The notes beneath the pieces are model-generated. The model did not search any database. It was not told the DNA's origin and was given only the letters and a program-made list of their open reading frames with translations. From contig OZ024752.1 of the NCBI GenBank assembly GCA_964016885.1, positions 47,182,001 to 47,246,000 of the forward strand: DNA of 64,000 nt, in the 5' to 3' direction. This document shows positions 19,990 to 44,726 of the stretch, in pieces (position 1 is the stretch's first letter; every line of letters begins with the position of its first letter). A program made the position numbers and the translations under genes. Source of the stretch: Eledone cirrhosa. Its lineage: Eukaryota.

Positions 19990-20278
19990 ATGAAAGTCAC
20001 CATAATTTCTGTTATTTGGTTATGGCTCTTTGGGTTAGGTTTAAACCAGGCATTGATATTAAGGTGTGACAAAAAAACATTTAATGCAAGTACGCCTGGT
20101 TCTGAGAAAGAACTGCGAATTGCTGTTATTTTAACAGCAACTAAAAAAAATGTATCAACAAATGTATGTAGTACATATCAAAACCCAACCATCCCAGAGG
20201 TTTTGGCACTTCAGTGGATTATTGATAAACTAAATACGCTATGTAGCAGGGAAAAACTAATTCCTTCATATAATATTG
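19990..20278 (+). CDS. Tandem-VFT single-pass receptor, coding exon 1 (signal peptide and start of VFT1)
   Basis: Hydrophobic leader MKVTIISVIWLWLFGLGLNQALIL; ..EVLALQWIIDKLN..LIPSYNI resembles the mGluR EAM..IN..LLPxxxLG segment; donor G|gtaagt; possible acceptor ttcctgcag at 19952. Confidence 0.8.
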
Positions 20279-20830
20279 GTAAGTAACTTAACTTTGATAA
20301 CTTTGATAGGTTTTGGCCAGTATTGTCTCAGGCCATGTCTAACTTAACCCTTTAGCATTTATATTATTCTATATTTACTTTTGTATTTTCATAGTAAAGG
20401 TTTTATTTTATATAATTATCTCACATAATATCGAATCTATGATCTTTACGATCTGAGTTCAAATCCCACCGAGGTTGACTTTATCTTTCATCCTTACGGG
20501 GTCGATGAAATAAAGTACCAGTAATGCACTGGGTAAATGCTGGCCTTGTGCCTAAAGTAGAAACAATAATATTGAATCTATGAGATTTTGATATTATTTA
20601 TTTTGAGAACAATACATTAACATAAGTAGGAGTGGCTAGTTATGGCCAGTTCAAACAGAAAGAGGTGAGAGAATTCTGACCGGATACGGCTGGTTTAAAT
20701 GCTAAAGGGTTAATAGCAGCACCTGGCAAATAAGTAGTTTATGAAAGTATTCCAATAACTATAATTATTTACAGGCATTTATGTGTTATAACTCTATATT
20801 CTTTTATTCCTATACTGGTTGGGATAATAT

Positions 20831-20986
20831 CAGGGCCGGATTTACATTTGATGAGGCCCTAAGCTATTTGAGATAATGGGGCCCTTTATATGTCCAGATA
20901 TCCTATGTCAGCGACAAATTGTCGCTGTTTTTTGTGTGGGGGCCCTAAGCTATAGCTTGTTTAGCTTATACGTAAATCTCACTCTG
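20831..20986. mobile_element. hAT-type MITE
   Basis: Ends CAGGGCCGGATTTAC and GTAAATCTCACTCTG; 8-bp TSD GATAATAT on both sides. Confidence 0.85.
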
Positions 20987-22267
20987 GATAATATCTTGAT
21001 TAGGATGACCAAATCGACCCAGTATTTATTTTGTGAGATATAGAAACACAGACAGACATTGATACACATACACACAGAGATACACACACACAGAGATACA
21101 CATACACACAGAGATACACACACAGACACACACAAAATAAAATCAGAACCAGAATTATTTCACAACCATGAAAGAGTAACAAGCTACTAAACTTCATTGG
21201 TTTCTGACGGAAATGTTTATAAATAACTTAAGATATAACAATTATATATCATTTTTTTAATAATATTATATTTTTTACTTCATAAATGTCAATGGCTCTC
21301 CCAACGCATCTCCTTTGCCATCCTCTGGGGAAACACCTTCTCCATTCTGTCCGCCGGGGCAATGGGGCGGCCAGCACGTGGGACCCCATTTGCTCATAAT
21401 TCAGAGAAATGGGGAGGTTGAGAGAGATGGAGGCGATGACGGTGGGAGTTTGGCTTTTCTGTGTTCGGACCTGGTGTGCAGCATCAGTTATCCGTATAAG
21501 GAGGTAGTGATTCATCTTCTATTCTATAATAGAGTAGATATTTGCCTTATTGTTGCCACAACATAATTATCCTTGCATTTTTTTAGTCCATCGCTAGGGA
21601 ACGTCTTCACGAAGTAACATATCGTCTTCCTGTTTTCCTTCGGTTGTAACATTTTTGAAATATTTACTTCTGCGTCCACAGATTGATTTTTTTTCAATGT
21701 CTTCCATATATATCTTAGACCTTACTATTTACCTTACTTGCCTTTAAAGTTGGTGTACAAGCTACTAGTGACATATGGTTACTCCATCTCTCTCTTTCTA
21801 CCTTGAACTTCAATGCTGTACCCCTCCACCCCACACAAATTTCTTATGCTCCCTTTAGTAGAACCAGTATTGTGTCACACTTCTTATTCAACCACGAAAG
21901 AATAACAAGCTAAAATTGATTGGTATCTGATGAAAATATTTTTACAAATAAGTTAAGCTATAACAATTCAGCTTGGAGAAAGGCTGAAAACAGAAAGTTT
22001 GCCAAAGCAGTGTGTTATAAATGACTTTGATGCACTTAGCACTGATGCTAAAAAAAAAAAAAAAAATGGCCTGGAAATGTTATTATGAGAGTCTGATGAA
22101 TGGACGGAGGAAGGATTACCCCCCTCCCACAACTTACCCAACAGAAGGACCAGCTTTTGAAGTTGACAGTTATAGGGTCAAAGAAGCAATTAAGGAGATG
22201 AAGAATGGTAAAGCTGCAAGACCATCAGAGATACTTGCTGAGATGCTTAACCCATTAACATTTACAT

Positions 22268-22595
22268 GGAGGCACATGGCTTAGTGGTTAGAGCATTGGC
22301 CTTGCAATCGAAAGGTTGTGAGTACAATTCTCAGACTGGGTGATGTGTTGTTTCCTTGAGCAAGACACTTTATTTCACATTGCTCCAGTTTACTCAGCTG
22401 TAGAAATGAGATGATAGGGACTGGGGTCCCTATCATTCCACTGCAAAGTGGTCGTGGAGGTGCCACGGCAAAAAAGCACCCAGCACTCACTGTAAATGAG
22501 GTTGGTGTTAGGAAGGGCATCCAGCTGTAGAAATCAAGCCAGAATCAGTTCCCGTCCTCACCCTTGCAAGCAGGGAAAAGCGGACATAAAATGAA
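22268..22595 (+). mobile_element. tRNA-derived SINE
   Basis: GGAGGCACATGGCTTAGTGG head; tail CCCTTGCAAGCAGGGAAAAGCGGAC. Confidence 0.88.
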
Positions 22596-22683
22596 ATGAA
22601 TGAAATGATTACTCTATATTTACTATTGTATTTTTGTGGGTTAGACATATATATATATATATACATATGTATTTACATTTATA

Positions 22684-22718
<35 letters not shown>

Positions 22719-22734
22719 CATCATCATCATCATT

Positions 22735-23060
22735 TCATTTTACGTCTGCTTTTCCCTGCTTGCAAGGGTGGGGACGGGAACTGATTCTGGCTTGATTTCT
22801 ACAGCTGGATGCCCTTCCTAACACCAACCTCATTTACAGTGAGTGCTGGTTGCTTTTTTGCCGTGGCACCTCCACGACCACTTTGCAGTGGAATGATAGG
22901 GACCCCAGTCCTATCATCTCATTTCTACAGCTGAGTAAACTGGAGCAATGTGAAATAAAGTGTCTTGCTCAAGGAAACAACACATCACCCGGTCTGAGAA
23001 TTGAACTCACAACCTTTCGATTGCAAGGCCAATGCTCTAACCACTAAGCCATGTGCCTCC
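22735..23060 (-). mobile_element. tRNA-derived SINE (inverted partner of 22268)
   Basis: Near-identical reverse complement of 22268-22595. Confidence 0.88.
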
Positions 23061-23570
23061 ATATTTGTATATATGTATGTATATCTAACTAATAAGTCAC
23101 TTTTATCAGCTAAGTTTATGTCATCATTTTTGGACCAATCAGCAACAGTGCTATTGTAATGGATATTACAAATCAAATTTGTCCTGAAAGATATCACTGG
23201 TTTTGTTAGATTAAAGAAATATGAGTCTGTCCTAGAATCTTGAGCTGTGTTACTTGTATTATTTTTCATTGAATCAGGAGAATGAGCTCTTTATATTCTG
23301 ATTTTTTAATTCCATGTGTCTAACACACGTAGGCATGTCTACAAAGTCAGAAAACAACACAGCTTCCATGATTTTTGGAAACCTCTTTTCACGCTCAGAG
23401 TTGCTGAAGCATGGAACAAACTACGTGCATCAGTTGTTAGCTGTCGAGACACTGCATCCTTTAAAACCTCAGCCGTGGGCATGCCTACAAAGTCAGAAAA
23501 CAGCACAGCTCCCATGACTTTTGGAAAGATTTTTGTAAATTTTATGTGTGTTTATATATTTGATAAACAG

Positions 23571-23699
23571 ATTTTGCAATATTTGATGATTGTGGGGAAC
23601 CAGAAATCGCAGCCAATCATGTATACAATATTTACAGACCCTTTGCACTAAATCACAACTTATGTGAACTTGAGACAAATCAAGATGCTCCATATACAG
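23571..23699 (+). CDS. Tandem-VFT receptor exon 2
   Basis: (D)FAIFDDCGEPEIAANHVYNIYRPFALNHNLCELETNQDAPYT; DDC is the equivalent of the class C DTC motif; cag| and |gtaagt; phases 1/1; this frame is not in the ORF track. Confidence 0.8.
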
Positions 23700-25113
23700 G
23701 TAAGTTAAATCTTTGAAAACATATTTTGTGGGAAATGGCAATAAAATATGTACAATTAATACAGTTTAGCCATTTAAATATTAAATTAAGTGGAGGTGCG
23801 TGGTTGAGTGGTTAGAGAATTGGATTCACAATTGTGAGGTTGTGAGTTCGATTCCTGGACCGGGCAATGCGTTATGTCCTTGAGCAAGACACTTTATTTC
23901 ACGTTGTTCCTTCAACCTGGAGTTGCGACCGATAGAGAGTATTAGCAATTGGAAAGACCAGCGGAAACATTGTCTCCTAGGTCCAATTTGACGAAAGTCA
24001 ATATTAAATTTTATTTCAAATGTATAGAAACCATATCAAACTGTTTCAGTTTCTAATATTCTCCCTCCATACTTGGTAGACACCCCAAAAATTATTAACC
24101 ATCTTGCCAACAACAACCCTGAGCACCTTTTTGAAGTCCATGTGTCTAACACCCATGGATATGTTTACAAAATAAGTAAACAGCACAGCTCCCATGAATT
24201 TCAGAAACATTTTTTCATGTTCAGAGTTACTGAAGCATGTAATAAACTACCTGCATCAGTTGTTAGCTGTCGAGACACTGCATCCTTCAAAACTTCTATG
24301 CTTCCTGAAATTCGCCAACGCTACACCTGATATTCCCCCCCATCTACACGCACGCATATGTCTGTGTATATCATGACTCGTACACTGTTCACTTTCCTGA
24401 CATTTGTGCATTATTCTATGTACTATACATGCACCTTTGATGAGTTGTAGTGCACCTGAGCACAGTACACAATAATTTTCATTTTCATTATTATTATCCA
24501 ACTCTCTAACAGATTAATGTTTTATTTTTGTATTCTCTGTTGTTTAATGTTCATGAACCCAGGGTAAATCCTGGTTTTTGTCCAATTCACGCCAGCATCG
24601 AAGAATACACATAAAAATAACTCCGACATATTTCAGTAAAAATTGTAAATTTTTGTATATATAAAATGCACCTGCTACATTCTGTAAAGTTCTAGTGTTG
24701 ATGCCACAATAAAATACACCCAGTACACTATATAAAGTAGTAGTACTGGTATCATAATAAAATACACCCAGTACACTCTGTAAAGTAGTAGTACTGGTGC
24801 CATGATAAATACACCAGTACTCATTGTAAAGTGGTAGTGTTGGTGTGATGATAAAATACACCCAGTACACTCTGTAAAGTGGTAGTGTTGGTGTCACAAT
24901 AAAATACACCTAGTACACTCTGTAAAGTGGTAGTACTGGTGCCATGATAAAATACACCCAGTTCACTCTGTAAAGTGGTAGCGTTGGTGCCATGATAAAA
25001 TACACCCAGTACACTCTGTAAAGTGGTAGTGCTGGTGCCATGATAAAATGTATTCAACACTCACTGTAAAGTGTTAAAACGTAACTTTTGTATGTATATC
25101 TTTATTCCAACAG

Positions 25114-25268
25114 CAATTATTTCCCTTAGTGACTATGCAGTTACTCAATCTATCCTTGAAAAAACCAAATATCTTCCAATCACAGTTGTTAGTCCTGTGA
25201 TAGAACAGAAGGCCTTTAAATATAAAAACTTCATATCTCTAGCGACACCCATGGAAACTCAAGTTCAG
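25114..25268 (+). CDS. Tandem-VFT receptor exon 3
   Basis: (A)IISLSDYAVTQSILEKTKYLPITVVSP..YKNFISLATPMETQVQ, a degenerate form of VIG..SSV..IPxIS..FxRxxPxDxxQ; phases 1/0. Confidence 0.8.
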
Positions 25269-25688
25269 GTAATTACAATCGTTTTTAGAGTGATATTAGA
25301 AAAAACTAGATAAGAAGAAAAACAAAATAAAACAGAAAATCTATAAGTGTAGGCATGATTGTGTGGTTACGGATTGTGCTCTGAAACCATGTGTACATGT
25401 GCAGGCATGGTTGTGTAGTTAAGGAGTTTGTTTTGCAACCACATGGTCTCAGGTTCACTCCCACAACTGTGTAGTACCTTGAGCAAGTGTCTCTCCATTA
25501 TAGTCCCAGCTTAACCTATTCATTCTGAGTGTAAATCTGTTGGCAGAAATTGGAGAAGCATATTGAATATATATACACAAACACACACACACATACACAC
25601 ACACACACAGATATATGCGTGTGTATTTATATAAATATGTATATGTGTGTGTGTGTGTAATATGTATATATATATATATATATATGTA

Positions 25689-27030
25689 ATAACAGCAATT
25701 GATGAAATGAGATCAAATCCAGCAGCTGGATCTGATGGTTTCTCAGTAATCTTCCTAAAAATATGCAAGCGTACATTAGCAAAAGCACTGCAGATTCTCT
25801 TCCAAAGATCACTTGCAAGTGGTAAGCTATCCGGAAAACTAAAAGAAGGCATATGTCCTATCCATAAAGAAGGAAGCAGAGCAGATACTAAAAACTACAG
25901 ACCTGTCTCCCTGACCTCACATATCAGCAATGTCATGGAATAAATCATTGATACTCAGCATGGCTTTTACTCAGGTAGAAGCTGTCTTACGCAGCTCCAA
26001 CAGCATTATGACTGGATACTCAAACAGCTGCTAAACCGACGTTGCAAACGCCTTCGACAAGGTTGATAATGGAATGATATGTCATAAAATACATAACTTT
26101 GGCATAGCTGGAAAACTAGCTGAATGGCTTCATGACTTCTTAAAAGACAGAAACCAGACTGTTGCAGCCAACTGGGCCCTCTCAAAGGAAACATTAATAA
26201 CAAGTGGCATGCCCCAGGGAACCATCTTGGGGCCACTACTGTTTGTGGTGGCTCTCTCAGACATGGCCTCTGTAATACGGACAGCCTCCCTCATAAGCTA
26301 TGCTGGTGACACGAAAGTAGTGCAGGCAATCAAGAAACTGGCTGATGCTGTTCTCTTACAGCAAGATTTAGATGCCATATATGGATGGACTGAAGATAAC
26401 AATATACAATTGAATGCAGGTAAGTTTCAAACCCTCTGCTATCAACCCCCAAATGTAGGACCACCATAACAAAGAAACACTGAGCAATAATGTATTGTTT
26501 CATGCACACATCCCCAAACGACAGCAATGTACAGCAACTGGCGGGATAGATTCTGAGGACATTCAGGATAAGAGACCTGGAAACCATGTTGGTCCTCTGG
26601 AGAACTTTTGTCCTCAGTCGACTGGACTATTGCTCTCAGATGTGGTCACCGACAGTGTCAAACTAACCACAGAAGCAATCCAAGAAAGCTACACCAAGAG
26701 GATTGCCTCAATGAAAGAGATGAGCTACTGGGAAAGGCTGAAAAAACTAAAGCTTTACTCCCTGGAGCGGAGACAAGACAGATATGCAGTGATATACTTA
26801 TGGAAGATTCTGGAAGGGTTAGCAAAAAACTTTGGCATTGAAGGCAGGACTAGTCCATGAACAGGATGCCACTGTGTAGTACAAAAGGTCCCATCTGTTG
26901 CATCAAGAATAAGGACCACATACTGCAATAGCCTGGGGTTCAAGGGATCTCAGTTTTTTAATAAACTGCCAAAGAGTCTGAAAGATCTGCATGGTGTGCA
27001 CATGGATATTTTCAAGAGACATCTCGACAT
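25689..27030 (+). mobile_element. CR1/L2-group LINE reverse transcriptase fragment (decayed)
   Basis: NYRPVSLTS, QHGF..GRSC, SGMPQGTILGPLLF, YAGDTK, SYWERLKKLKLYSLERR; frameshifts and stops. Confidence 0.88.
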
Positions 27031-27295
27031 TACAGTGTGTATTGAGTGCGTTTATTGTGTAGATTGCCAACACTAAGGAGGTTGTCATATCCTTGACATG
27101 ACTGAAGGATCCTCTTGACCCTTTATTTTGGTAGGCTTTCTATAGCTGGGTGCCCTTACTATCACCAACCATTTTACAGCATGTACTAAGTGTGTTTATT
27201 GTATAAATTTAAAAATCAACATCGAAATAGTCATACATGAATTTTTCAATATATCTCTATTACGACATTTGTATTTTCATTTCTCTATTTTCTAG

Positions 27296-28030
27296 GCTGC
27301 AATAATGCTTCTTAAAAAAATGAAATGGATTTATCATGGAATCCTCTACTCTGATAATGAATACGGATATGAAATGGCTAATATTTTGGAAACAGCTGCA
27401 AAAAGTCACAACATCTGTTTTTCAATAAAGAAACCTTTTTCAGTGAAAGTATTGAATGAGATAAAAAACTTTCAAGAAAGCTTTTACAGTGGCATGATAT
27501 ACGTTGGTGAAATGAAAGACATAGGATCTTTTCTTGAGAACCAGAAATGGTGCTGGATAATTTTAGATATATCAGGGAAAATAATACAACATAATTTTAA
27601 AAAATTATCCAATATGACAAGCTTATATGTAATTTCTTCATTAAATTCAAACAACAAAGAGTTCCTGGATTATTTGAAAAGTGCACAAACTTTGATTTCT
27701 TCAAAACACAATGATTCTCTTTTTCATTGGATAAGAAACCTATTTAGAACAATAAAGAAAATCCCTTCAAAATATATCTTTTACAATGAACACATAGGAA
27801 TTAATATCAGAGAAATAGTGGAGTCTGTTTATATTATTGCCATGGCTAAACGAAAGGAATGTAAACTGGATAAATGCTCAACTTACTTAAATGCTGAAAC
27901 TCTGAAAAGTATCATTACTGTTAATGATCAGACGGTTCCAAACTGCTTTTCAAAAGATCGATTGGGTTTAAAAGCAAACACATCAGACATTTTGCATGTT
28001 TATTCTTATAAAGAAGGTATTTTCAAAAAG
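27296..28030 (+). CDS. Tandem-VFT receptor exon 4 (VFT1 lobe 2)
   Basis: AAIMLLKKMKWIYHGILYSDNEYG..ICF..EGIFKK; 735 nt open; tag| and |gttagc; phases 0/0. Confidence 0.88.
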
Positions 28031-28538
28031 GTTAGCATATTGTTGTTGTTGTTTAACACTGGGTAAATCCTGATTGTGTAGACCAGAGGTTCTCAAACTG
28101 TTTGCCCCCCCCCCCCATTTCCAGAGAGACCTACATCATCATCATCGCTTAACGTCCATCTTCCACACTAGCAAGGGTTAGACGGTTTTGTTCCATTTGA
28201 AGCAGGAATGGTTGGGAGACCGCGTCTCACTCGTACGGAAGTGTCTCTGACAGTTTTTTTTTTACAGCTGGATGCCCTTCCTAACACCAACCACATTTAC
28301 AGTGTGGACTGGGAGCCTTTTTACTGCGTCTCCTACACGACCACCTTACAGTGTGGACTGTTGTGTCATCGACACAGTGGATGGAACAGAAATGGAAGGA
28401 TGGGGTGGGGTGTATATTGGGTTAAGAGGTGCCTACTGACTGTAGGTTTGTATGCAATGGCAGTCGGGTCTTCTGTACAACTGCATGGCGCCAAAGGTCT
28501 TGATCCAGTGTCATTGTAAATGATATATAATAAATAAT

Positions 28539-30616
28539 TGTTTCTACTTTTGGCACAAGGCCAGCAATTATTCCAGTGCATTACTGGTACTTTATATAAT
28601 AAATATGATATATAATAAATAATATAATATATCCTATGTATAAATTGTTTCTACTTTTGACACAAGACCAGCAATTATTCCAGTGCATTACTGGTACTTT
28701 ATATAATAAATATGATATATAATAAATAATATAATATATCCTATGTATAAATTGTTTCTACTTTTGACACAAGACCAACAATTATCCCAGTGCATTACTG
28801 GTACTTTATATAATAAATATGATATATAATAAATAATATAATATATCCTATGTATAAATTGTTTCTACTTTTGACACAAGACCAGCAATTATCCCAGTGC
28901 ATTACTGGTACTTTATATAATAAATATGATATATAATAAATAATATAATATATCCTATGTATAAATTGTTTCTACTTTTGACACAAGACCAACAATTATC
29001 CCAGTGCATTACTGGTACTTTATATAATAAATATGATATATAATAAATAATATAATATATCCTATGTATAAATTGTTTCTACTTTTGACACAAGACCAGC
29101 AATTATCCCAGTGCATTACTGGTACTTTATATAATAAATATGATATATAATAAATAATATAATATATCCTATGTATAAATTGTTTCTACTTTTGACACAA
29201 GACCAACAATTATCCCAGTGCATTACTGGTACTTTATATAATAAATATGATATATAATAAATAATATAATATATCCTATGTATAAATTGTTTCTACTTTT
29301 GACACAAGACCAGCAATTATCCCAGTGCATTACTGGTACTTTATATAATAAATAATATAATATATCCTATGTATAAATTGTTTCTACTTTTGACACAAGA
29401 CCAGCAATTATCCCAGTGCATTACTGGTACTTTATATAATAAATATGATATATAATAAATAATATAATATATCCTATGTATAAATTGTTTCTACTTTTGA
29501 CACAAGACCAGCAATTATCCCAGTGCATTACTGGTACTTTATATAATAAATAATATAATAAATATGATATATAATAAATAATATAATATATCCTATGTAT
29601 AAATTGTTTCTACTTTTGACACAAGACCAACAATTATCCCAGTGCATTACTGGTACTTTATATAATAAATATGATATATAATAAATAATATAATATATCC
29701 TATGTATAAATTGTTTCTACTTTTGACACAAGACCAGCAATTATCCCAGTGCATTACTGGTACTTTATATAATAAATATGATATATAATAAATAATATAA
29801 TATATCCTATGTATAAATTGTTTCTACTTTTGACACAAGACCAACAATTATCCCAGTGCATTACTGGTACTTTATATAATAAATATGATATATAATAAAT
29901 AATATAATATATCCTATGTATAAATTGTTTCTACTTTTGACACAAGACCAGCAATTATCCCAGTGCATTACTGGTACTTTATATAATAAATAATATAATA
30001 TATCCTATGTATAAATTGTTTCTACTTTTGACACAAGACCAGCAATTATCCCAGTGCATTACTGGTACTTTATATAATAAATATGATATATAATAAATAA
30101 TATAATATATCCTATGTATAAATTGTTTCTACTTTTGACACAAGACCAGCAATTATCCCAGTGCATTACTGGTACTTTATATAATAAATAATATAATATA
30201 TCCTATGTATAAATTGTTTCTACTTTTGACACAAGACCAGCAATTATCCCAGTGCATTACTGGTACTTTATATAATAAATATGATATATAATAAATAATA
30301 TAATATATCCTATGTATAAATTGTTTCTACTTTTGACACAAGACCAGCAATTATCCCAGTGCATTACTGGTACTTTATATAATAAATAATATAATAAATA
30401 TGATATATAATAAATAATATAATATATCCTATGTATAAATTGTTTCTACTTTTGACACAAGACCAGCAATTATCCCAGTGCATTACTGGTACTTTATATA
30501 ATAAATAATATAATAAATATGATATATAATAAATAATATAATATATCCTATGTATAAATTGTTTCTACTTTTGACACAAGACCAGCAATTATCCCAGTGC
30601 ATTACTGGTACTTTAT
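28539..30616. repeat. Tandem array, ~107-bp unit, about 19-20 copies, SINE-derived
   Basis: Unit spacing 28645 to 28752; contains the SINE segment CAAGACCAGCAATTATCCCAGTGCATTACTGGTACTTTA. Confidence 0.95.
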
Positions 30617-30772
30617 AGAAACCAATAGCGAAAACTGACTGCAAAAGCATTTCAAGTAACATCCCAACGACTGGCTGCACAAATTGTGGCAAGATTATGA
30701 TGATGATGCTGATCTGCATATGATGACTTCAAGTTGTTATTAACATTATTTTTACTGTTGTCTATATTTCAG

Positions 30773-30996
30773 GTTGGTGACTATTTTCATAATAAGACTT
30801 TGATATTAAAATCCTCTGAGGAAGACAAGACTGAAATTCTATCAACTTTTAAACCAGTCAAAGAATATTCCCGAATATGTTCTGAAAATGCACCAGTTTA
30901 TTTGGATAATATCCTATACATTCCAGGGGACATCATAATTTTAGGAGTGTTCTCATTGCATAACACTGGTTATGGTTTTAATTGTGGTAGTAAAAG
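30773..30996 (+). CDS. Tandem-VFT receptor exon 5 (end of VFT1, start of VFT2)
   Basis: VGDY..C..YIPGDIIILGVFSLH..FNCG, the class C PGDI(I)LGGLFxxH..C start motif; phases 0/2. Confidence 0.88.
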
Positions 30997-31631: not shown

Positions 31632-32859
31632 GAAATCAAACAATGATGACATTTCTGGAGAGGCTTTTCTCTATTCTATCAACAAATCAAAAATAATCAA
31701 GGATGGCATTAAACTTGGAGCTCTGCTGATGGATGATTGTTACAACCCATTGCGCATTTCTTTAAATATTACTAGTATTCTCGCTGGTGAAATAAATATC
31801 ATGGATTCTAATACTTGCCAAAAAATTTCTCCATCAAAGATTGTAGGTGTTATTGGCTCTCTCTCAAGTTCTGTTACAAAAGCTATGGCTGATATATTCA
31901 TGTTGTATAAAATACCAGTCATTTCTTATGCAGCTTCATCTGTAGACCTAGATGATCGAATTTCATATCCTTATTTCCTCCGAACCGTTCCAAGCGACAT
32001 TCTGCAAGTAAAAGGTATAATTGAAATTTTGAAACATTTTAGATGGAATTATGTAGGGCTAATTTATGCTGACAACAACTATGGACTTAAAGCTAAAGAG
32101 CTTTTACTTGCATCTGCGATGCAAAATGGGATATGTATCTATCCATTTAATCCCATTGCTGAAAGTGAAGAAAAAACCAATTACAATGAATTTGATGAAA
32201 TATTTTCTACTTCCTTACTGAAAGATATTACAATCCTGATATACTTTGGTACAAGTTCTCGTACACTAGATCTTCTTCAATCTTTGGAAAATAGAAAAAT
32301 GGATAATTATTTTACTTTTATTGGGAGTGATGCATGGGGAAAAAATGATTTGATTTTAAATTATGGTCATGTATTTATGGGGTCTATCATTACTGCAATC
32401 GATAATTCAAGACTGGTTGAACGCAATGAGGAATTAAGTTTCAAAAACTATTTAAAAAATAGGCTTGCAAATTTAAAGTACTTAAAGAACACATACTTTA
32501 ATTATTTTTGGAAGGAGGAATATATGTGCCGTCTGTTAGGAAATGCTTTTCCATGTAGAGGGAAAGACTTGTCTAATGAGGCAATTGATTCTTATCTAAA
32601 TGATCATAGAATTATTCAAACAATGAATTCAGTTTATGCTATACGCAATGGAATAAAGAAATTGATTGAAGAAGAATGTGATGGAAATATTTGCAATAAA
32701 TTTTCAACCAAAGTTGATGAATTAATTTCAATTATTAAAAAAACTGAAATATCAAGCTATTTAGACACTGCCAAAATGTTTGATGCTCATGGAAATGGAT
32801 TGGTTGGTTTCCAGTTCTACAACTTACAGAAATATGGTAACAAGTACATATTCAAGGAA
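31632..32859 (+). CDS. Tandem-VFT receptor exon 6 (VFT2, mGluR/CaSR-like ANF_receptor domain)
   Basis: EAFLYSINK, LGALLMDDC, VGVIGSLSSSVT, IPVISYAASSVDLDDRISYPYFLRTVPSD, WNYVGLIY..NYG, IGSDAWG, NSVYAI, FDAHGNG; phases 2/0. Confidence 0.95.
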
Positions 32860-32914: not shown

Positions 32915-33304
32915 TCTTAACTATAATAAAGAAAGGAGTTGGATTACTTTGAATAAATAATGAATGAATATTACATAATTTATCTACTAAATTTTGTAAC
33001 TCTTGATTAAATATAAAGATTCACTTTTTTTTAATTTTCAAATGTCAACACTTCCGGTTAGCGGCTGTTATATTATAACACTTATAAAAACATTGCATAT
33101 ATTTCTGTCGCTAATTTTCTCCTAGTGCAGTTTATATATAATATTGTCTTTTTTAAATGTATCATGGATTACGTTTCTGATTACGGAAGACAGTGTAACG
33201 CAGTCTCTCTTTAATTTCTGTGTATATTGTCAATTACAATTTTATTTGACATATCATATCTACATGCTAGCAGTAAACCACCCAAAGGGTGGTTTTTCTG
33301 CTAG
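32915..33304 (+). mobile_element. Non-autonomous Helitron
   Basis: A|TCTTAACTATAATAAAG start; ACCACCC-AAA-GGGTGGT hairpin; CTAG|T end. Confidence 0.75.
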
Positions 33305-34335: not shown

Positions 34336-34344
34336 ACAGTTCAT

Positions 34345-35300
34345 TATTTCAACTTTTGTTGATGGGTTTCAGGTCTCAGTCGATTGTTTGCCACCAGTTC
34401 ATCTTGGGACATCCTCTTTGCCTCTTTCCATGGGGGGGTGTACCAATACAGGACCTGGTTAACACGTCGTTTACTTGTGAGTTGTGTAACGTGTCCCAAC
34501 CAGTCAAGTTGACACTTGTACATGATGTTAGATACACGTTGGTGGGCTTGTTGACAGACTTCTTTCTTGGTGATAAAGTCATCCCACCCGATGCCAAAGA
34601 TTTTCCATAATTATTTGGTGATAAAAGCATCTAATTAGTTTCCCTGGCTGGTCTTCACATTCCATGTTTCGCACCCATACAGGAGCATTGAAAGCACATT
34701 ACTGTTGTAAAATCTCATCCTGGTATCAAGCAAAAGTGTTTTGCTTCTCCAGATCTTATGAAGTTGCTTAAAGGCAGCCAAAGCTTTGCCTATTCTGCAA
34801 TTAATTTCTTTCACACTGTTCCTATTTCTGATGATAGAGCTTCTGAGGTAGGTGAAGTCATCCATGACCTTCACATTCTCTTGATTAAAGTATGTACATG
34901 TTTGTTGATGATGGATAATTACTAATTAGCATGCTCTTGGTCTTTTGATACTGATGTGCAGACCGATGTTGGTTGCAGATAACCCTATCTCATTTATAAG
35001 ATACTGCAAGACAAATGTAATTTTGGCTATAGCTGCAATATCATCTGCAAAGTCAAAGTCTGAGAGCTTCTGTTCCTCTAACTAGTCAATCCCCTTGTCT
35101 TCTGTTGCCCTTTTGAGAATCCAATTGATGGCCAAAGCAAAGAGAATCAGAGACAGAGGTTATCCTTGGTGCACTCCTGTGATGACCTCAAACCACTCCT
35201 GTGATGACCTCAAACCACTCACTGTAGCCATCCACAGTTCTTATGCAGCATTTTCAACTGGTATATAAATCCTTGATGGCTGAGACAACCTTGGATGGCT
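34345..35300 (-). mobile_element. RTE LINE RT fragment
   Basis: DFADDIA, FTYLRS, RFYNSNVLSMLLYGCETW. Confidence 0.85.
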
Positions 35301-35482: not shown

Positions 35483-35747
35483 GTTGGTTCATATAATAAC
35501 AACAGCGGTCTTGTCGTTGATGATAAAAATATAAAATTTTATACTCATGACAACAAAGAAATACCAAAACTTGAAACTAATTGTCCCAAAGCTTTAGAAT
35601 GTTGCAAATCGAAAACAAACAGCGAGGAAACACATGTTCTGCAAAACAGCAGCAGTATAATTCAAACTATTGTAATTCCATTTGTAGTTTTTCTGCTTTT
35701 CTGTTTAATTTTAGGTGCTGCATTGTTGTACAGAAAATATAAGCGTG
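35483..35747 (+). CDS. Tandem-VFT receptor exon 7 (short Cys linker and single TM helix)
   Basis: VGSYNNNSGL..NCPKALECCK..IIQTIVIPFVVFLLFCLILGAALLYRKYKR; tttttag| and G|gtaagc; phases 0/1. Confidence 0.85.
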
Positions 35748-35774
35748 GTAAGCATTCTTTTTCTTCTTATTTGC

Positions 35775-36455
35775 CCACTTATTCCAGAGAGGGTCATGGG
35801 ACATTCCTCAAACACTTGTTTGATGTGCAATGTAAGTGTGTGAGAGAAAGGCAGAGCTTAGACCAGAGCTGAAATGACTCTTCCACACAGTTATTCTTTT
35901 CTTCATCCACTTATTCCAGAGAGGGTCATGGGACATTCCTCAAACACTTGTTTGATGTGCAATGTAAGTGTGTGAGAGAAAGACAGAGCTTAGACCAGAG
36001 CTGAAATGACTCTTCCACACAGTTATTCTTTTCTTCATCCACTTATTCCAGAGAGGGTCATGGGACATTCCTCAAACACTTGTTTGATGTGCAATGTAAG
36101 TGTGTGAGAGAAAGGCAGAGCTTAGACCAGAGCTGAAATGACTCTTCCACACAGTTATTCTTTTCTTCATCCACTTATTCCAGAGAGGGTCATGGGACAT
36201 TCCTCAAACACTTGTTTGATGTGCAATGTAAGTGTGTGAGAGAAAGGCAGAGCTTAGACCAGAGCTGAAATGACTCTTCCACACAGTTATTCTTTTCTTC
36301 ATCCACTTATTCCAGAGAGGGTCATGGGACATTCCTCAAACACTTGTTTGATGTGCAATGTAAGTGTGTGAGAGAAAGACAGAGCTTAGACCAGAGCTGA
36401 AATGACTCTTCCACACAGTTATTCTTTTCTTCATCCACTTATTCCAGAGAGGGTC
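35775..36455. repeat. Tandem array, 132-bp unit, about 5 copies, spanning a LINE-LINE junction
   Basis: Units start at 35775, 35907, 36039, 36171, 36303, 36435. Confidence 0.92.
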
Positions 36456-36684
36456 GGGGGATGGAGTCCTCAAACACTCCTTCCAGCGGGTCCTGCCAGA
36501 AGCAACCGTCCCCAACTGACCTGGCTGGATCCCTAAGCATGACCAACCAAACTCATGGATGTTATCCAACCATCTTCATCGAGGTCTACCCCTGGGTCTC
36601 CTGCCGGTTGGTTTTGTCCATAAAATCTGTCCAGCGATTCTTTCCTGCCCATAGTATCGGAGCTGTGATCTTTCAATTCGAAGG

Positions 36685-39600
36685 AGTAGCAGCTCTACCT
36701 GGAGCGACTCTCTGATCTCCAAGCCACACACTCTATCAAATAACGTTACTCTAAAGACATTTCAGAAGTAGCAGCTCTACCTGGAGAGACTCTCTGATCT
36801 CCAAGCCACACACTCTATCAAATAACGTTACTCTAAAGACATTTCAGAAGTAGCAGCTCTACCTGGAGCGACTCTCTGATCTCCAAGCCACACACTCTAT
36901 CAAATAACGTTACTCTAAAGACATTTCAGAAGTAGCAGCTCTACCTGGAGTGACTCTCTGATCTCCAAGCCACACACTCTATCAAATAACGTTACTCTAA
37001 AGACATTTCAGAAGTAGCAGCTCTACCTGGAGTGACTCTCTGATCTCCAAGCCACACACTCTATCAAATAACGTTACTCTAAAGACATTTCAGAAGTAGC
37101 AGCTCTACCTGGAGTGACTCTCTGATCTCCAAGCCACACACTCTATCAAATAATGTTACTCTAAAGACATTTCAGAAGTAGCAGCTCTACCTAGAGTGAC
37201 TCTCTGATCTCCAAGCCACACACTCTATCAAATAATGTTACTCTAAAGACATTTCAGAAGTAGCAGCTCTACCTGGAGTGACTCTCTGATCTCCAAGCCA
37301 CACACTCTATCAAATAACGTTACTCTAAAGACATTTCAGAAGTAGCAGCTCTACCTAGAGTGACTCTCTGATCTCCAAGCCACACACTCTATCAAATAAT
37401 GTTACTCTAAAGACATTTCAGAAGTAGCAGCTCTACCTGGAGTGACTCTCTGATCTCCAAGCCACACACTCTATCAAATAACGTTACTCTAAAGACATTT
37501 CAGAAGTAGCAGCTCTACCTAGAGTGACTCTCTGATCTCCAAGCCACACACTCTATCAAATAACGTTACTCTAAAGACATTTCAGAAGTAGCAGCTCTAC
37601 CTGGAGTGACTCTCTGATCTCCAAGCCACACACTCTATCAAATAACGTTACTCTAAAGACATTTCAGAAGTAGCAGCTCTACCTGGAGTGACTCTCTGAT
37701 CTCCAAGCCACACACTCTATCAAATAACGTTACTCTAAAGACATTACAGAAGTAGCAGCTCTACCTGGAGAGACTCTCTGATCTCCAAGCCACACACTCT
37801 ATCAAATAACGTTACTCTAAAGACATTTCAGAAGTAGCAGCTCTACCTGGAGTGACTCTCTGATCTCCAAGCCACACACTCTATCAAATAACGTTACTCT
37901 AAAGACATTTCAGAAGTAGCAGCTCTACCTGGAGCGACTCTCTGATCTCCAAGCCACACACTCTATCAAATAACGTTACTCTAAAGACATTTCAGAAGTA
38001 GCAGCTCTACCTGGAGCGACTCTCTGATCTCCAAGCCACACACTCTATCAAATAATGTTACTCTAAAGACATTTCAGAAGTAGCAGCTCTACCTGGAGCG
38101 ACTCTCTGATCTCCAAGCCACACACTCTATCAAATAACGTTACTCTAAAGACATTTCAGAAGTAGCAGCTCTACCTGGAGAGACTCTCTGATCTCCAAGC
38201 CACACACTCTATCAAATAACGTTACTCTAAAGACATTTCAGAAGTAGCAGCTCTACCTGGAGTGACTCTCTGATCTCCAAGCCACACACTCTATCAAATA
38301 ACGTTACTCTAAAGACATTACAGAAGTAGCAGCTCTACCTGGAGTGACTCTCTGATCTCCAAGCCACACACTCTATCAAATAACGTTACTCTAAAGACAT
38401 TTCAGAAGTAGCAGCTCTACCTGGAGCGACTCTCTGATCTCCAAGCCACACTCTATCAAATAACGTTACTCTAAAGACATTTCAGAAGTAGCAGCTCTAC
38501 CTGGAGCGACTCTCTGATCTCCAAGCCACACACTCTATCAAATAACGTTACTCTAAAGACATTTCAGAAGTAGCAGCTCTACCTGGAGTGACTCTCTGAT
38601 CTCCAAGCCACACACTCTATCAAATAACGTTACTCTAAAGACATTTCAGAAGTAGCAGCTCTACCTGGAGTGACTCTCTGATCTCCAAGCCACACACTCT
38701 ATCAAATAACGTTACTCTAAAGACATTTCAGAAGTAGCAGCTCTACCTGGAGTGACTCTCTGATCTCCAAGCCACACACTCTATCAAATAACGTTACTCT
38801 AAAGAAATTTCAGAAGTAGCAGCTCTACCTGGAGCGACTCTCTGATCTCCAAGCCACACACTCTATCAAATAATGTTACTCTAAAGACATTTCAGAAGTA
38901 GCAGCTCTACCTGGAGTGACTCTCTGATCTCCAAGCCACACACTCTATCAAATAACGTTACTCTAAAGACATTTCAGAAGTAGCAGCTCTACCTGGAGTG
39001 ACTCTCTGATCTCCAAGCCACACACTCTATCAAATAATGTTACTCTAAAGACATTTCAGAAGTAGCAGCTCTACCTGGAGTGACTCTCTGATCTCCAAGC
39101 CACACACTCTATCAAATAATGTTACTCTAAAGACATTTCAGAAGTAGCAGCTCTACCTGGAGCGACTCTCTGATCTCCAAGCCACACACTCTATCAAATA
39201 ACGTTACTCTAAAGACATTTCAGAAGTAGCAGCTCTACCTGGAGCGACTCTCTGATCTCCAAGCCACACACTCTATCAAATAATGTTACTCTAAAGACAT
39301 TTCAGAAGTAGCAGCTCTACCTGGAGTGACTCTCTGATCTCCAAGCCACACACTCTATCAAATAACGTTACTCTAAAGACATTTCAGAAGTAGCAGCTCT
39401 ACCTGGAGTGACTCTCTGATCTCCAAGCCACACACTCTATCAAATAACGTTACTCTAAAGACATTTCAGAAGTAGCAGCTCTACCTAGAGTGACTCTCTG
39501 ATCTCCAAGCCACACACTCTATCAAATAACGTTACTCTAAAGACATTTCAGAAGTAGCAGCTCTACCTGGAGTGACTCTCTGATCTCCAAGCCACACACT

Positions 39601-41672
39601 CTATCAAATAACGTTACTCTAAAGACATTTCAGAAGTAGCAGCTCTACCTGGAGTGACTCTCTGATCTCCAAGCCACACACTCTATCAAATAACGTTACT
39701 CTAAAGACATTACAGAAGTAGCAGCTCTACCTGGAGTGACTCTCTGATCTCCAAGCCACACACTCTATCAAATAATGTTACTCTAAAGACATTTCAGAAG
39801 TAGCAGCTCTACCTAGAGAGACTCTCTGATCTCCAAGCCACACACTCTATCAAATAACGTTACTCTAAAGACATTTCAGAAGTAGCAGCTCTACCTGGAG
39901 TGACTCTCTGATCTCCAAGCCACACACTCTATCAAATAACGTTACTCTAAAGACATTACAGAAGTAGCAGCTCTACCTGGAGTGACTCTCTGATCTCCAA
40001 GCCACACACTCTATCAAATAACGTTACTCTAAAGACATTTCAGAAGTAGCAGCTCTACCTAGAGTGACTCTCTGATCTCCAAGCCACACACTCTATCAAA
40101 TAACGTTACTCTAAAGACATTTCAGAAGTAGCAGCTCTACCTGGAGTGACTCTCTGATCTCCAAGCCACACACTCTATCAAATAACGTTACTCTAAAGAC
40201 ATTTCAGAAGTAGCAGCTCTACCTGGAGTGACTCTCTGATCTCCAAGCCACACACTCTATCAAATAACGTTACTCTAAAGACATTTCAGAAGTAGCAGCT
40301 CTACCTGGAGTGACTCTCTGATCTCCAAGCCACACACTCTATCAAATAACGTTACTCTAAAGACATTTCAGAAGTAGCAGCTCTACCTGGAGTGACTCTC
40401 TGATCTCCAAGCCACACACTCTATCAAATAACGTTACTCTAAAGACATTTCAGAAGTAGCAGCTCTACCTGGAGTGACTCTCTGATCTCCAAGCCACACA
40501 CTCTATCAAATAACGTTACTCTAAAGACATTTCAGAAGTAGCAGCTCTACCTGGAGTGACTCTCTGATCTCCAAGCCACACACTCTATCAAATAACGTTA
40601 CTCTAAAGACATTTCAGAAGTAGCAGCTCTACCTGGAGTGACTCTCTGATCTCCAAGCCACATACTCTATCAAATAACGTTACTCTAAAGACATTTCAGA
40701 AGTAGCAGCTCTACCTGGAGTGACTCTCTGATCTCCAAGCCACACACTCTATCAAATAACGTTACTCTAAAGACATTTCAGAAGTAGCAGCTCTACCTGG
40801 ATTGACTCTCTGATCTCCAAGCCACACACTCTATCAAATAACGTTACTCTAAAGACATTTCAGAAGTAGCAGCTCTACCTGGAGAGACTCTCTGATCTCC
40901 AAGCCACACACTCTATCAAATAACGTTACTCTAAAGACATTTCAGAAGTAGCAGCTCTACCTGGAGAGACTCTCTGATCTCCAAGCCACACACTCTATCA
41001 AATAACGTTACTCTAAAGACATTTCAGAAGTAGCAGCTCTACCTGGAGCGACTCTCTGATCTCCAAGCCACACACTCTATCAAATAACGTTACTCTAAAG
41101 ACATTTCAGAAGTAGCAGCTCTACCTGGAGCGACTCTCTGATCTCCAAGCCACACACTCTATCAAATAACGTTACTCTAAAGACATTTCAGAAGTAGCAG
41201 CTCTACCTGGAGCGACTCTCTGATCTCCAAGCCACACACTCTATCAAATAACGTTACTCTAAAGACATTTCAGAAGTAGCAGCTCTACCTGGAGTGACTC
41301 TCTGATCTCCAAGCCACACACTCTATCAAATAACGTTACTCTAAAGACATTTCAGAAGTAGCAGCTCTACCTGGAGTGACTCTCTGATCTCCCAGCCACA
41401 CACTCTATCAAATAACGTTACTCTAAAGACATTTCAGAAGTAGCAGCTCTACCTGGAGTGACTCTCTGATCTCCAAGCCACACACTCTATCAAATAACGT
41501 TACTCTAAAGACATTTCAGAAGTAGCAGCTCTACCTGGAGTGACTCTCTGATCTCCAAGCCACACACTCTATCAAATAACGTTACTCTAAAGACATTTCA
41601 GAAGTAGCAGCTCTACCTGGAGAGACTCTCTGATCTCCAAGCCACACACTCTATCAAATAATGTTACTCTAA
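36685..41672. repeat. Tandem array, 82-bp unit, about 60 copies, RTE-derived
   Basis: Spacing 36721 to 36803; the antisense strand reads VTLFDRVCGLEIRESLQVELLL, continuous with the adjacent RTE piece. Confidence 0.97.
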
Positions 41673-41949
41673 AAACCCTTTGAAGTAACCACATTTATTG
41701 GGTGTATTTTATGCTCATCTCTCATTACATTTACTTTTAGTGTTACAGTGCTTGTATATGTAGGCAGGCCTTTTATCATCATCATCAACACCGTTTTACG
41801 TCAATGTTTCCACGCTAGCATGGGTTAGACAGCTTGTCCTGTTGTGGTCAATGCTAGGTCAGGTGACCATGTCTTGCTCATACAGAACTGATTTTGACTT
41901 GGTTTTTACAGCTGGATGCCCTTCCTAACACCAACCTCATTGAGTACTG

Positions 41950-43720
41950 GGTGCTTTTTTTATTGTGGCGCCTACATGACCACTTTAGAGGGTGGACTGG
42001 GTGCTTTTTGTCATGACACCTACATGACCACTTTACAGGGTGGACTGGGTGCTTTTTGTCATGACACCTACATGACCACTTTACAGTGTGGACTGGGTGC
42101 TTTTTGTCATGACACCTACATGACCACTTTAGAGGGTGGACTGGGTACTTTTTGTCATGACACCTACATGACCAGTTTACAGTGTGGACTGGGTGCTTTT
42201 TGTCATGACACCTACATGACCACTTTACAGTGTGGACTGGGTACTTTTTGTCATGACACCTACATGACCAGTTTAGAGGGTGGACTGGGTACTTTTTGTC
42301 ATGACACCTACATGACCACTTTACAGGGTGGACTGGGTACTTTTTGTCATGACACCTACATGACCACTTTACAGTGTGGACTGGGTGCTTTTTGTCATGA
42401 CACCTACATGACCACTTTACAGGGTGGACTGGGTACTTTTTGTCATGACACCTACATGACCACTTTAGAGGGTGGACTGGGTACTTTTTGTCATGACACC
42501 TACATGACCACTTTACAGTGTGGACTGGGTGCTTTTTGTCATGACACCTACATGACCACTTTACAGTGTGGACTGGGTGCTTTTTGTCATGACACCTACA
42601 TGACCACTTTACAGTGTGGACTGGGTACTTTTTGTCATGACACCTACATGACCAGTTTAGAGGGTGGACTGGGTACTTTTTGTCATGACACCTACATGAC
42701 CACTTTACAGGGTGGACTGGGTACTTTTTGTCATGACACCTACATGACCACTTTACAGTGTGGACTGGGTGCTTTTTGTCATGACACCTACATGACCACT
42801 TTACAGGGTGGACTGGGTACTTTTTGTCATGACACCTACATGACCACTTTAGAGGGTGGACTGGGTACTTTTTGTCATGACACCTACATGACCACTTTAC
42901 AGTGTGGACTGGGTGCTTTTTGTCATGACACCTACATGACCACTTTACAGGGTGGACTGGGTGCTTTTTGTCATGACACCTACATGACCACTTTACAGGG
43001 TGGACTGGGTACTTTTTGTCATGACACCTACATGACCACTTTACAGTGTGGACTGGGTGCTTTTTGTCATGACACCTACATGACCACTTTACAGTGTGGA
43101 CTGGGTGCTTTTTGTCATGACACCTACATGACCACTTTACAGTGTGGACTGGGTGCTTTTTGTCATGACACCTACATGACCACTTTACAGGGTGGACTGG
43201 GTACTTTTTGTCATGACACCTACATGACCACTTTACAGTGTGGACTGGGTGCTTTTTGTCATGACACCTACATGACCACTTTACAGGGTGGACTGGGTGC
43301 TTTTTGTCATGACACCTACATGACCACTTTAGAGGGTGGACTGGGTACTTTTTGTCATGACACCTACATGACCACTTTAGAGGGTGGACTGGGTACTTTT
43401 TGTCATGACACCTACATGACCACTTTACAGTGTGGACTGGGTGCTTTTTGTCATGACACCTACATGACCACTTTACAGGGTGGACTGGGTACTTTTTGTC
43501 ATGACACCTACATGACCACTTTACAGTGTGGACTGGGTGCTTTTTGTCATGACACCTACATGACCACTTTACAGGGTGGACTGGGTGCTTTTTGTCATGA
43601 CACCTACATGACCACTTTACAGTGTGGACTGGGTGCTTTTTGTCATGACACCTACATGACCACTTTACAGTGTGGACTGGGTGCTTTTTGTCATGACACC
43701 TACATGACCAGTTTACAGTG
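41950..43720. repeat. Tandem array, 48-bp unit, about 37 copies, inside a SINE-like element
   Basis: Spacing 42001 to 42049; related units occur at 3470-3610, 24700-25075, 31160-31520 and 61421-62270. Confidence 0.95.
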
Positions 43721-44109
43721 GGAAGGGCGTGGAGGCATATTGTCTATATATATGGCATGTCACCAGCCAACTAGGATCTGTGTCATCTTCATGATGTTCA
43801 GTTTCTCAAGGTCATTCTTCACAACTTTGACCCATATCTTCCTCAGTCGGTATGTTTGTGTCTATTTCTTATGATCACGTCTATGCCTGAATTTATGTCT
43901 CATAACTTAGTGATTCAACAATAAAAGAAATTGGTAAAATAATTATCAGGCTTGAATAAATACATACTGGGATTGATATAATCAACTAAATTAAGGTGGT
44001 GTACCTTCACTGACTGAAACCAGAATAAAAGAATATATTCAATTATCTTTTTACTTTGATGTAAGATGATTTCATAGAGTTTATTATTCTTAGGTTGCTT
44101 GGTTGTTCA

Positions 44110-44616
44110 TCTTAACTATAATAAAGTAAGGAGTGTGGGACTGCGTCCAGAATATATGTTTTAATCTCGTTTGTAAAATAAGTTGGATTACTTTGAATAA
44201 ATAATGAATGAAAATTACATAATTTATCCACTAAATTTCGTAACTTTTGATTAAATATAAATAATTTTATTGCTTATTTTAAGATTCACTTCTTTAAAAT
44301 TTTCAAATGTCAACACTTCCGGTCAGTGTCCGTTATATTATAACATCGCTTATATAAATATTCATATATTTCTGTCGCTAATTTTCTCCTAATGCAGTTT
44401 ATATATAATATCGTCTTTTTTTTAATGTATCACGGATTATTTTCCTGATTACAGAAGAGAGGGTAACACAGTCTCTCTTCAATTTCCGTGCATATTGTCA
44501 ATTACAATTTTATTTGATATATCATATTTACATGTATATATATATTTGCATATAATATCAATATGCACACTACACTTGATAGCAGAAAACCACCCTTTGG
44601 GTGGTTTTTCTGTTAG
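44110..44616 (+). mobile_element. Non-autonomous Helitron, second copy
   Basis: Same 5' end and body as 32915; same hairpin; TTAG|T end. Confidence 0.72.
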
Positions 44617-44655
44617 TTCATTTAACCGAACTAATAATAAAATATTGTCTTCCAG

Positions 44656-44726
44656 GTAAAATGAAAATAGATCCGAATGAAACCAGACTTAAAACTATTT
44701 ACAGTTCAGAATCTCAAATTGACTGA
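44656..44726 (+). CDS. Tandem-VFT receptor putative last coding exon (short cytoplasmic tail)
   Basis: tcttccag| (G)KMKIDPNETRLKTIYSSESQID*; phase 1 matches exon 7; the only plausible non-repeat exon found before the NitFhit 3' end; ATTAAA follows near 44856. Confidence 0.6.

Follow-up and report, generated by a model that had tools for sequence, protein, structure and literature searches.

The 64,000-nucleotide stretch of the Eledone cirrhosa genome analysed here (the window; contig OZ024752.1, positions 47,182,001 to 47,246,000) contains a gene of eight exons (19990-44726) whose product belongs to a lophotrochozoan family of membrane receptors. It has the two tandem Venus flytrap (VFT) domains, the three-cysteine linker and the single transmembrane (TM) helix of that family, carries no enzyme domain, and falls within the family clades. 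The architecture and distribution of the family are solid, and its function is predicted only. The reading that we prefer, to which we give about as much belief as doubt, takes the protein for a single-pass receptor that binds an amino acid; its octopod form would be without a signalling tail of its own, having lost it, and would likely be a dimeric capture or accessory subunit resembling NPR-C.

A sequence-only reading of the window had proposed eight phase-consistent exons and about 1031 residues, and the rebuilt gene bears this out. The eight GT-AG exons join in phase to a single open frame of 3096 nt encoding 1031 amino acids and a stop codon, and all exon boundaries are AG/GT. All exons lie on the plus strand. 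The coding part of exon 1 (19990-20278, aligned to P0001 of O. bimaculoides) encodes the signal peptide, a signal-like hydrophobic stretch at residues 5-23 (Kyte-Doolittle 1.86), and the start of VFT1. Exon 2 (23571-23699, phase 1-1) adds lobe 1 of VFT1; exon 3 (25114-25268) continues VFT1 and places Y147, E170, S181 and M186 at the positions of mGlu1 S165, T188, R203 and D208, with loss of the pocket; exon 4 (27296-28030) encodes lobe 2, with C232 at the mGlu1 C254 position. Exon 5 (30773-30996) holds the end of VFT1, the inter-VFT linker, with a single cysteine (C472) against three in most relatives, and the first strand of VFT2. VFT2, with an intact amino-acid signature, occupies exon 6 (31632-32859) and ends in exon 7 (35483-35747), which continues with the three-cysteine mini-linker (35582-35605), the TM helix (35669-35731; residues 983-1003, Kyte-Doolittle 3.03) and the stop-transfer sequence RKYKR. 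Exon 8 (44656-44726) supplies the final 23 codons of the 28-residue tail and the stop. The TM helix is the sole membrane helix after the signal stretch, and every element that the sequence-only reading had listed, from signal peptide to tail, was found in the rebuilt protein.

Two ANF_receptor domains, with neither NCD3G nor 7tm_3, had been expected, and Pfam returned this pattern. ANF_receptor matched exon 4 (E 1.3e-6, above the cut-off) and exon 6 (E 7.9e-38), and NCD3G and 7tm_3 were absent from all seven exons scanned (exons 1-7). The best sequence match of exon 6 in the Protein Data Bank (PDB) was mGlu1 (E 7.9e-39), and VFT2 is 24-28% identical to G-protein-coupled receptors (GPCRs) of class C. 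Exon 4 alone gave no VFT match among solved structures; its identity as a VFT comes from Pfam, the alignment and the secondary structure of a model of the orthologue. The locus holds no seven-transmembrane (7TM) exons, as had been claimed: a 7TM profile built from 45 relatives matched none of the 2045 open reading frames (ORFs) of the window. As a positive control, the same profile matched six ORFs that covered all five control loci. A kinase or cyclase is likewise lacking, both in the 28-residue tail and in the 52 relatives described below.

The splicing that ends the protein was observed directly. Exon 7 was compared with three sequencing runs, X1, X2 and X3, all from a single study. A 400-nt contig of X2 (depth 52) spans 35483-35751 and continues in the letters of exon 8, which is the exon 7-8 join as modelled and confirms the proposed junction 35747-44656. 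A second X2 contig, of 2908 nt, passes from the end of exon 6 into exon 7, also as modelled, and its length equals the 2760 nt of exons 1-6 plus 30 nt from exon 7 and a further 118 nt. From these two exon-exon joins we infer that X2 is RNA. Runs X1 and X3 gave no such splice-type contig ends among the matches listed. The junctions from exons 1-2 to exons 5-6 rest on phase, on the length of the 2908-nt contig and on 57% identity to P0001 over 1012 aligned residues. The sequence-only reading had allowed that exon 6 or 7 might splice onward to 7TM or cyclase exons; what was found is exon 7 leading to exon 8 with its stop codon. At the donor of exon 7 the contig that joins exons 7 and 8 runs on without a break; rare forms drop out of contigs, so minor isoforms may exist. 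The interval between exons 7 and 8 holds about 7.5 kb of tandem arrays, and intron 7 consists mostly of three of them.

The same layout recurs in many other proteins. A search with exon 6 returned 33 longer proteins, of which the top 15 were molluscan and had two ANF_receptor stretches and nothing else; a profile made from five of the top proteins gave 150 best representatives. We sorted 189 proteins with a VFT match into 54 with two full VFTs, one TM helix and a tail, 25 with two to five VFTs and a 7TM domain, 20 with a single VFT and a 7TM domain, and one with five VFTs and a partial 7TM domain; 89 were partial or unclear and were excluded. Removal of one fused model left 53 complete family proteins, the window protein included. 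All 52 relatives (the 15 and 37 more) have two ANF_receptor stretches, and by Pfam none has 7tm_3, NCD3G, a kinase or a cyclase, so that the orthologues do not present the window gene as a truncated copy of a 7TM receptor. The five family proteins inspected for their source (P0004, P0005, P0011, P0040 and P0139) come from Logan contigs of 3.6-5.5 kb, each with the whole ORF. Three cysteines precede the TM helix in 48 of the 53 members, against 9-10 in 19 of the 20 single-VFT 7TM proteins. Identity of the window protein, 57% with P0001, is 38% with a cuttlefish-type and 30% with a bivalve protein.

Names looked up for 30 proteins place the family in cephalopods, bivalves, gastropods, the brachiopod Lingula, the bryozoan Watersipora and the annelid Dimorphilus. 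The suggestion of an undescribed molluscan family thus stands in that the family is conserved and undescribed, and falls in that it extends beyond molluscs. Auto-annotation as metabotropic glutamate receptors (mGluRs), which had been expected, is rare: nearly all of the proteins looked up are 'uncharacterized' or 'hypothetical' in public annotation, and one listed isoform is mGluR3-like. Some database models, and isoform P0002 of O. sinensis, stop before the TM helix. In its own genome the gene is single copy as far as three genome searches go. The exon 4 search found its own locus alone, and searches with exon 6 and with a clade C protein of the family found only the window, a five-VFT gene on C22 and mGluR-like loci; the clade C search was stricter, and the absence of paralogues is to be read as a floor.

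Amino-acid-binding VFTs carry an eight-residue signature (S, S/T, R, D, Q, Y, G, D/E) according to PMC1764893 and PMC2680970. With the genome's own canonical mGluR exon as alignment reference, VFT2 of the window protein has all eight residues (S590, S613, R628, D633, Q636, Y661, G662 and D744) and R837 at the K409 position. The complete signature and an arginine at the K409 position were found in VFT2 of 16 of 16 proteins (32-63% identity); such retention speaks for a small ligand as the object of selection. VFT2 is predicted to bind an alpha-amino acid, and the invariant arginine would favour an acidic or polar side chain. Glutamate is not established as the ligand because all 16 lack the equivalent of mGlu1 R78, which we take to be a basic residue of the glutamate pocket. 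The window protein has S519 and R837 in place of the two basic residues (R78 and K409) of the glutamate-selective mGluR pocket. VFT1 is different, with four of the eight residues in the window protein. All six coleoid proteins have lost the equivalents of S165, T188, R203 and D208 from VFT1, and oysters have lost the greater part of the signature; most gastropods and bivalves keep it, with Tyr or Phe at the K409 position. Across the 53 members the full signature is present in 41 VFT2 and 31 VFT1 domains, and by clade in VFT2 of 15/15 proteins in A, which includes the window protein, 13/14 in B and 13/24 in C.

The origin of the family was examined with two trees, one made with FastTree (202 domains, 13 near-duplicate proteins excluded) and one with IQ-TREE (a selection of 79 domains, with single-VFT 7TM proteins as the root). 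Both cover family, multi-VFT and single-VFT 7TM domains, with the VFTs of Venus kinase receptors (VKRs), GABA-B receptors and cyclases left out. In both, the VFT1 domains of the family cluster with the first VFT of GPCRs that carry four or five VFTs (99 in IQ-TREE), and family VFT2 groups with VFT2-4 of the five-VFT GPCRs (96 and 98), away from mGluRs. Family VFT2 was monophyletic at 86 in one tree and not resolved in the other. A VFT with three cysteines is the unit common to the two-VFT family and the multi-VFT GPCRs. The simplest reading would be that the family derived from the lineage of four- and five-VFT class C GPCRs by loss of the 7TM domain, a direction suggested by the 7TM-bearing lineages that branch outside.

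Multi-VFT 7TM proteins (two to five VFTs and 7tm_3), mostly annotated 'uncharacterized', were found in a bivalve, a nemertean, scorpions, a tick, Saccoglossus, a crinoid and amphioxus (names looked up for 30 proteins). The E. cirrhosa genome has such a gene on the minus strand of C22 (14396700-14431300), with five VFT units and three-cysteine linkers followed by 7TM exons. The three VFT pieces of it that were tested retain 0, 3 and 1 of five core pocket residues, with the full signature in none of them. Eight five-VFT GPCRs have the full signature in 6 of 40 domains (8 of 40 with a coarser alignment), and some have intact pockets: P0036 in three domains, P0039 in V4, and P0041 in V4 and V5.

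An AlphaFold2 model of the O. bimaculoides orthologue consists of two alpha/beta domains and, at the C-terminus, a single long helix (mean pLDDT 73, pTM 0.52). It matches mGlu ectodomains (Foldseek, VIA-align; Z 35-38, rmsd 2.3-3.3) over residues 477-957 only. The aligned range ends at C957, opposite mGlu3 527 and mGlu2 518, which are presumably the cysteines of the cysteine-rich domain (CRD) bonded to lobe 2. Of the 106 family domains, 104 carry the lobe-2 cysteine that corresponds to mGlu1 C254. C573 (31816-31818, plus strand) aligns with mGlu1 C140, the proposed inter-subunit disulfide bridge (PMC8310541), and is a candidate covalent dimer link with a putative pairing. This loop cysteine and a Leu at the L177 position occur in all three octopod proteins, against no Leu there in the 14 other clade A proteins; among the cephalopods and bivalves examined, the loop cysteine is found in octopods only. 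With what we take to be the mGlu numbering of the dimer interface, window VFT2 has hydrophobic residues at 5/5 helix B/C positions in pairwise register, a register that is ambiguous by one residue. Separately, cephalopods have an N-glycan sequon (N556) in helix B of VFT2.

The tail of the window protein has 28 residues, against about 160-575, rich in disorder-promoting residues, in the rest of clade A. In the long disordered tails of the relatives (160-755 residues), PxLPxR, tyrosine motifs and PDZ-type motifs at the C-terminus are overrepresented, as defined by the familiar SH3 and PDZ consensus. In clade A, PxLPxR occurs in 7/15 tails (shuffle mean 0.15) and a class-I PDZ-type end in 10/15 (0.38); in clade B, Y[EDA][ED][PIV] occurs in 7/14 (shuffle mean 0.52) and V, I or L as the last residue in 13/14 (2.3). 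These counts were reached by none of 300 shuffles. Nephrin and NEPH1 have tails with YDEV-Nck and PDZ links (PMC7040068). Both octopod tails lack PxLPxR, tyrosine-site and PDZ-end motifs, and the two lineages they come from differ little in tail length. Tyr, PxxPxR and a PDZ-type end are all missing from the O. bimaculoides tail, the window tail has a single distal Tyr that is not conserved between the two, and they share just a short T-[RK]-[LV]-K-T stretch. No remnant of a longer cuttlefish- or bivalve-type tail was found in the window above chance (tblastn, best E 1.7). The short tail first noted is thus present but is an octopod peculiarity. Of the roles first suggested, amino-acid sensor, co-receptor or decoy, the last would suit the octopod copy more than the family at large, since the closest relatives have long motif-rich tails.

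A mechanism can be proposed for the preferred reading of an amino-acid-binding receptor. The membrane-proximal VFT2 would close on an amino acid, and lobe-2 C679 would bond a cysteine of the three-cysteine linker, like the VFT-CRD staple of mGluRs, so that VFT2 closure would move the TM helix. The disordered tail may be the output in bivalves, gastropods and cuttlefish: its tyrosine sites would bind SH2 adaptors, its PxLPxR motifs SH3 domains, and its C-terminus would serve as a PDZ ligand, an adaptor-recruiting output that may be likened to nephrin-type receptors without an enzyme. Octopods would have dropped this output and gained C573 together with a helix B/C face that is hydrophobic, and would form a dimer like that of NPR-C. 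Such a disulfide-linked octopod dimer may capture ligand on behalf of a partner receptor or keep ligand from it, with the dead VFT1 as a spacer or protein-binding module. The family would have arisen as a split from the four- and five-VFT class C GPCR lineage in which an N-terminal-type and an internal-type VFT were kept and the rest was replaced by one TM helix. A more specific proposal is that lophotrochozoans wire a Venus flytrap in a fourth way, the family being a class of amino-acid receptors, split from the giant four- and five-VFT GPCRs, that has no G protein, kinase or cyclase of its own and signals via disordered SH2/SH3/PDZ-recruiting tails, and that the single octopod copy is a tail-less, disulfide-linked ligand-binding subunit, possibly for the pocket-degenerate five-VFT GPCR encoded in the same genome; we advance this tentatively and would sooner expect some part of it to fail.

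Several observations weigh against an amino-acid receptor with a dimeric octopod form. VFT2 pockets are incomplete in 11 of the 24 clade C members. The structural model is that of the O. bimaculoides orthologue and not of the window protein (pTM 0.52), and VFT1 lies outside its structural matches. The loop cysteine also occurs in two gastropods. By alignment columns the family has 1.6-2.9 of 5 hydrophobic interface positions against 4.95 in mGluR-type proteins, and an mGluR-like dimer is thus not a family trait. The tail motif counts are inflated by kinship, since a number of members are near-orthologues, and for each clade eight patterns were tried; no clade showed enrichment of YxxM, nor clade A of YxxP or NPxY. 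Clade C tails are short (18-236 residues) and mostly without PDZ ends. Conservation of the octopod tail is poor (48 of 2000 shuffles attain its local score; BLAST E 0.34), which fits a loss of function and does not show a partner.

A GABA-B-type division of labour between subunits would assign the protein another role: in a class C receptor split over two chains it would be the subunit that binds the ligand, paired with the five-VFT 7TM GPCR of its own genome, which would supply G-protein coupling. The two families are mutually closest VFT relatives with the three-cysteine linker in common, the degenerate C22 gene (0, 3 and 1 of five core residues in the pieces tested) resides in the same genome, and the full signature is found in 6/40 domains of the eight five-VFT relatives as against 41/53 family VFT2 domains. 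However, the five-VFT GPCRs with intact pockets (P0036, P0039 and P0041) need no partner for binding, and outside octopods the long tails, rich in motifs, point to signalling by the protein itself; we consider the split receptor unlikely. To a role in cell recognition or adhesion we give the same low credence. The tandem VFTs would then bind a protein in trans and a PDZ/SH3 tail would anchor a junction, with amino-acid binding vestigial or modulatory. Retention of VFT1 in coleoids and oysters despite loss of its pocket is consistent with this, as are the nephrin/NEPH1 layout of tandem ectodomain, one TM helix and tyrosine/PDZ tail (PMC7040068) and the engagement of ELFN adhesion proteins by mGluR VFTs (PMC13544217). 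The VFT2 signature and invariant arginine, kept in 16 of 16 proteins, argue against it, as does the lack of an anchoring tail in octopods.

The octopod protein might instead signal by itself through its short tail, by way of the basic juxtamembrane cluster or the single distal Tyr. Direct signalling through a short tail has been reported for NPR-C, the octopod tail is spliced in and of near-equal length in two lineages, and the VFT2 pocket and linker are intact; the O. bimaculoides tail, devoid of Tyr, PxxPxR and PDZ-type end and sharing only T-[RK]-[LV]-K-T, makes this a shade less probable still. That the gene is a copy in decay, or part of a 7TM receptor that is truncated or wrongly modelled, as P0002 and other database models that end before the TM helix, the two junctions seen directly in one run of one study and the loss of rare isoforms from contigs might suggest, is very improbable given the open 1031-residue frame, the exon 7-8 join to a stop, the absence of a 7TM ORF from the window, 53 independent complete proteins of the same layout with conserved C-termini, and VFT2 clades distinct from those of 7TM receptors.

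Comparison with known systems sets the family apart. Class C GPCRs (mGlu1-8 and CaSR) resemble it in the VFT fold, the VFT2 signature, the lobe-2 cysteine and, in octopods, the cysteine at the C140 position; the window protein differs by its two VFTs per chain, its three-cysteine linker in place of the nine-cysteine domain and its one TM helix, and its VFT2 departs from the mGluR pocket in lacking the R78 equivalent and having Arg for K409. Multi-VFT class C GPCRs are the closest VFT relatives in both trees and have the same repeat unit, but the two-VFT family lacks the 7TM domain and has better conserved pockets and, outside octopods, a long adaptor-like tail. NPR-C (NPR3) is likewise a single-pass protein with an ANF_receptor ectodomain, a very short enzyme-free tail and a disulfide-linked dimer, a feature predicted for the window protein. 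It has one VFT and binds peptides between its subunits, whereas the window protein has two mGluR-type VFTs, an amino-acid pocket and long-tailed relatives. Feature neighbours in the ESM Atlas were NPR3 clusters (0.94) and a mollusc cluster auto-named mGluR.

VKRs are also invertebrate single-pass VFT receptors activated by amino acids, and have Tyr at the K409 position, where family VFT1 outside coleoids has Tyr or Phe; the family differs in having no tyrosine kinase and two VFTs that appear mGlu-like, in contrast to the GABA-B-like VFT of VKRs (PMC2680970). The best sequence and fold matches of VFT2 and the orthologue model are to mGlu, in comparisons whose trees were without VKR sequences. 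Unlike receptor guanylyl cyclases, the family has no kinase-homology or cyclase domain. SmGBP of Schistosoma and the truncated mGlu3 splice variant are mGluR-derived ligand-binding proteins without a 7TM domain; glutamate binding and a dimer were shown for SmGBP, which differs in having one VFT and no linker, C-terminal TM helix or tail (PMC3206071). EhVFT is a single VFT, also without 7TM domain, C-terminal TM helix or tail (PMC12965686). Nephrin and NEPH1 resemble non-octopod members in the single TM helix and in the YDEV-like Nck sites and PDZ ligand of the tail, but have an Ig/FN3 ectodomain and not a VFT, and the family motifs are predicted and absent from the window protein (PMC7040068).

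The family has at least three subfamilies, with local expansions in abalone and bivalves. Amino acids serve as feeding, settlement and neural cues, and if VFT2 binds them the family would be an overlooked candidate class of amino-acid receptors in molluscs and their allies. It would exemplify a class C ectodomain re-coupled to a non-enzymatic tail and the stacking of tandem VFTs in one chain, for which no solved structure matched. In the literature searched, which held few subscription papers, we found among the matches listed no description of the two-VFT single-pass family or of multi-VFT GPCRs and nothing under six LOC identifiers; supplementary expression tables, which lay outside the search, may list the genes. 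Among surveys of invertebrate glutamate receptors and GPCRs, one picked its sequences by PF00003 (PMC6408891) and another discarded sequences missing two or more TM regions (PMC6307864); selection of this kind, by the 7TM domain, would filter out a family that has none.

Among the relatives, Haliotis P0109, P0121, P0126 and P0138 are short-tailed clade C paralogues in which Trp is common at the VFT2 K409 position, a candidate chemosensory expansion. P0180 of the Lingula cluster was rejected as an ankyrin-tailed receptor, since it is rabankyrin-5, a neighbour that a fused model had joined on; P0181 was dropped. An intron-less 909-codon mGluR-like ORF on C27 (L016, 4833-7559), possibly a retrocopy, is nearest in the tree to a spliced mGluR on C14 (L017).

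A near-perfect inverted duplication of 1.26 kb (44759-46018) starts 33 nt past the stop codon of the receptor gene, with arms that are 95-99% complementary and a 30-nt centre. The X2 contig through exon 8 stops at about 44790, just within the first arm. If transcribed, the duplication would form a hairpin of about 600 bp, a candidate substrate for adenosine-to-inosine (A-to-I) editing. A 350-bp segment, probably an interspersed repeat, is present at 32937-33266 in intron 6 and, 84.5% identical, at 44181-44534 just before exon 8. Intronic minisatellite arrays lie at 28536-30617 (period 107), 35775-36478 (132), 36685-41673 (82), 41971-43718 (48), 48284-50151 (78) and 54121-55372 (89), and fragments of LINE reverse transcriptase were identified by reading near 25635-27073 and 34347-34925. 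The convergent neighbour on the minus strand (48155-63430, stop 48155-48157) has CN_hydrolase (nitrilase) exons and a HIT exon and is a NitFhit-type fusion; an in-frame-open tandem array of 24.5 copies of 48 bp (51536-52713) precedes the HIT exon. The divergent upstream neighbour (913-3003, minus strand) has exons that resemble the N-terminus of DCAF1/VprBP (1300-1587, weak PDB match, E 0.0055).

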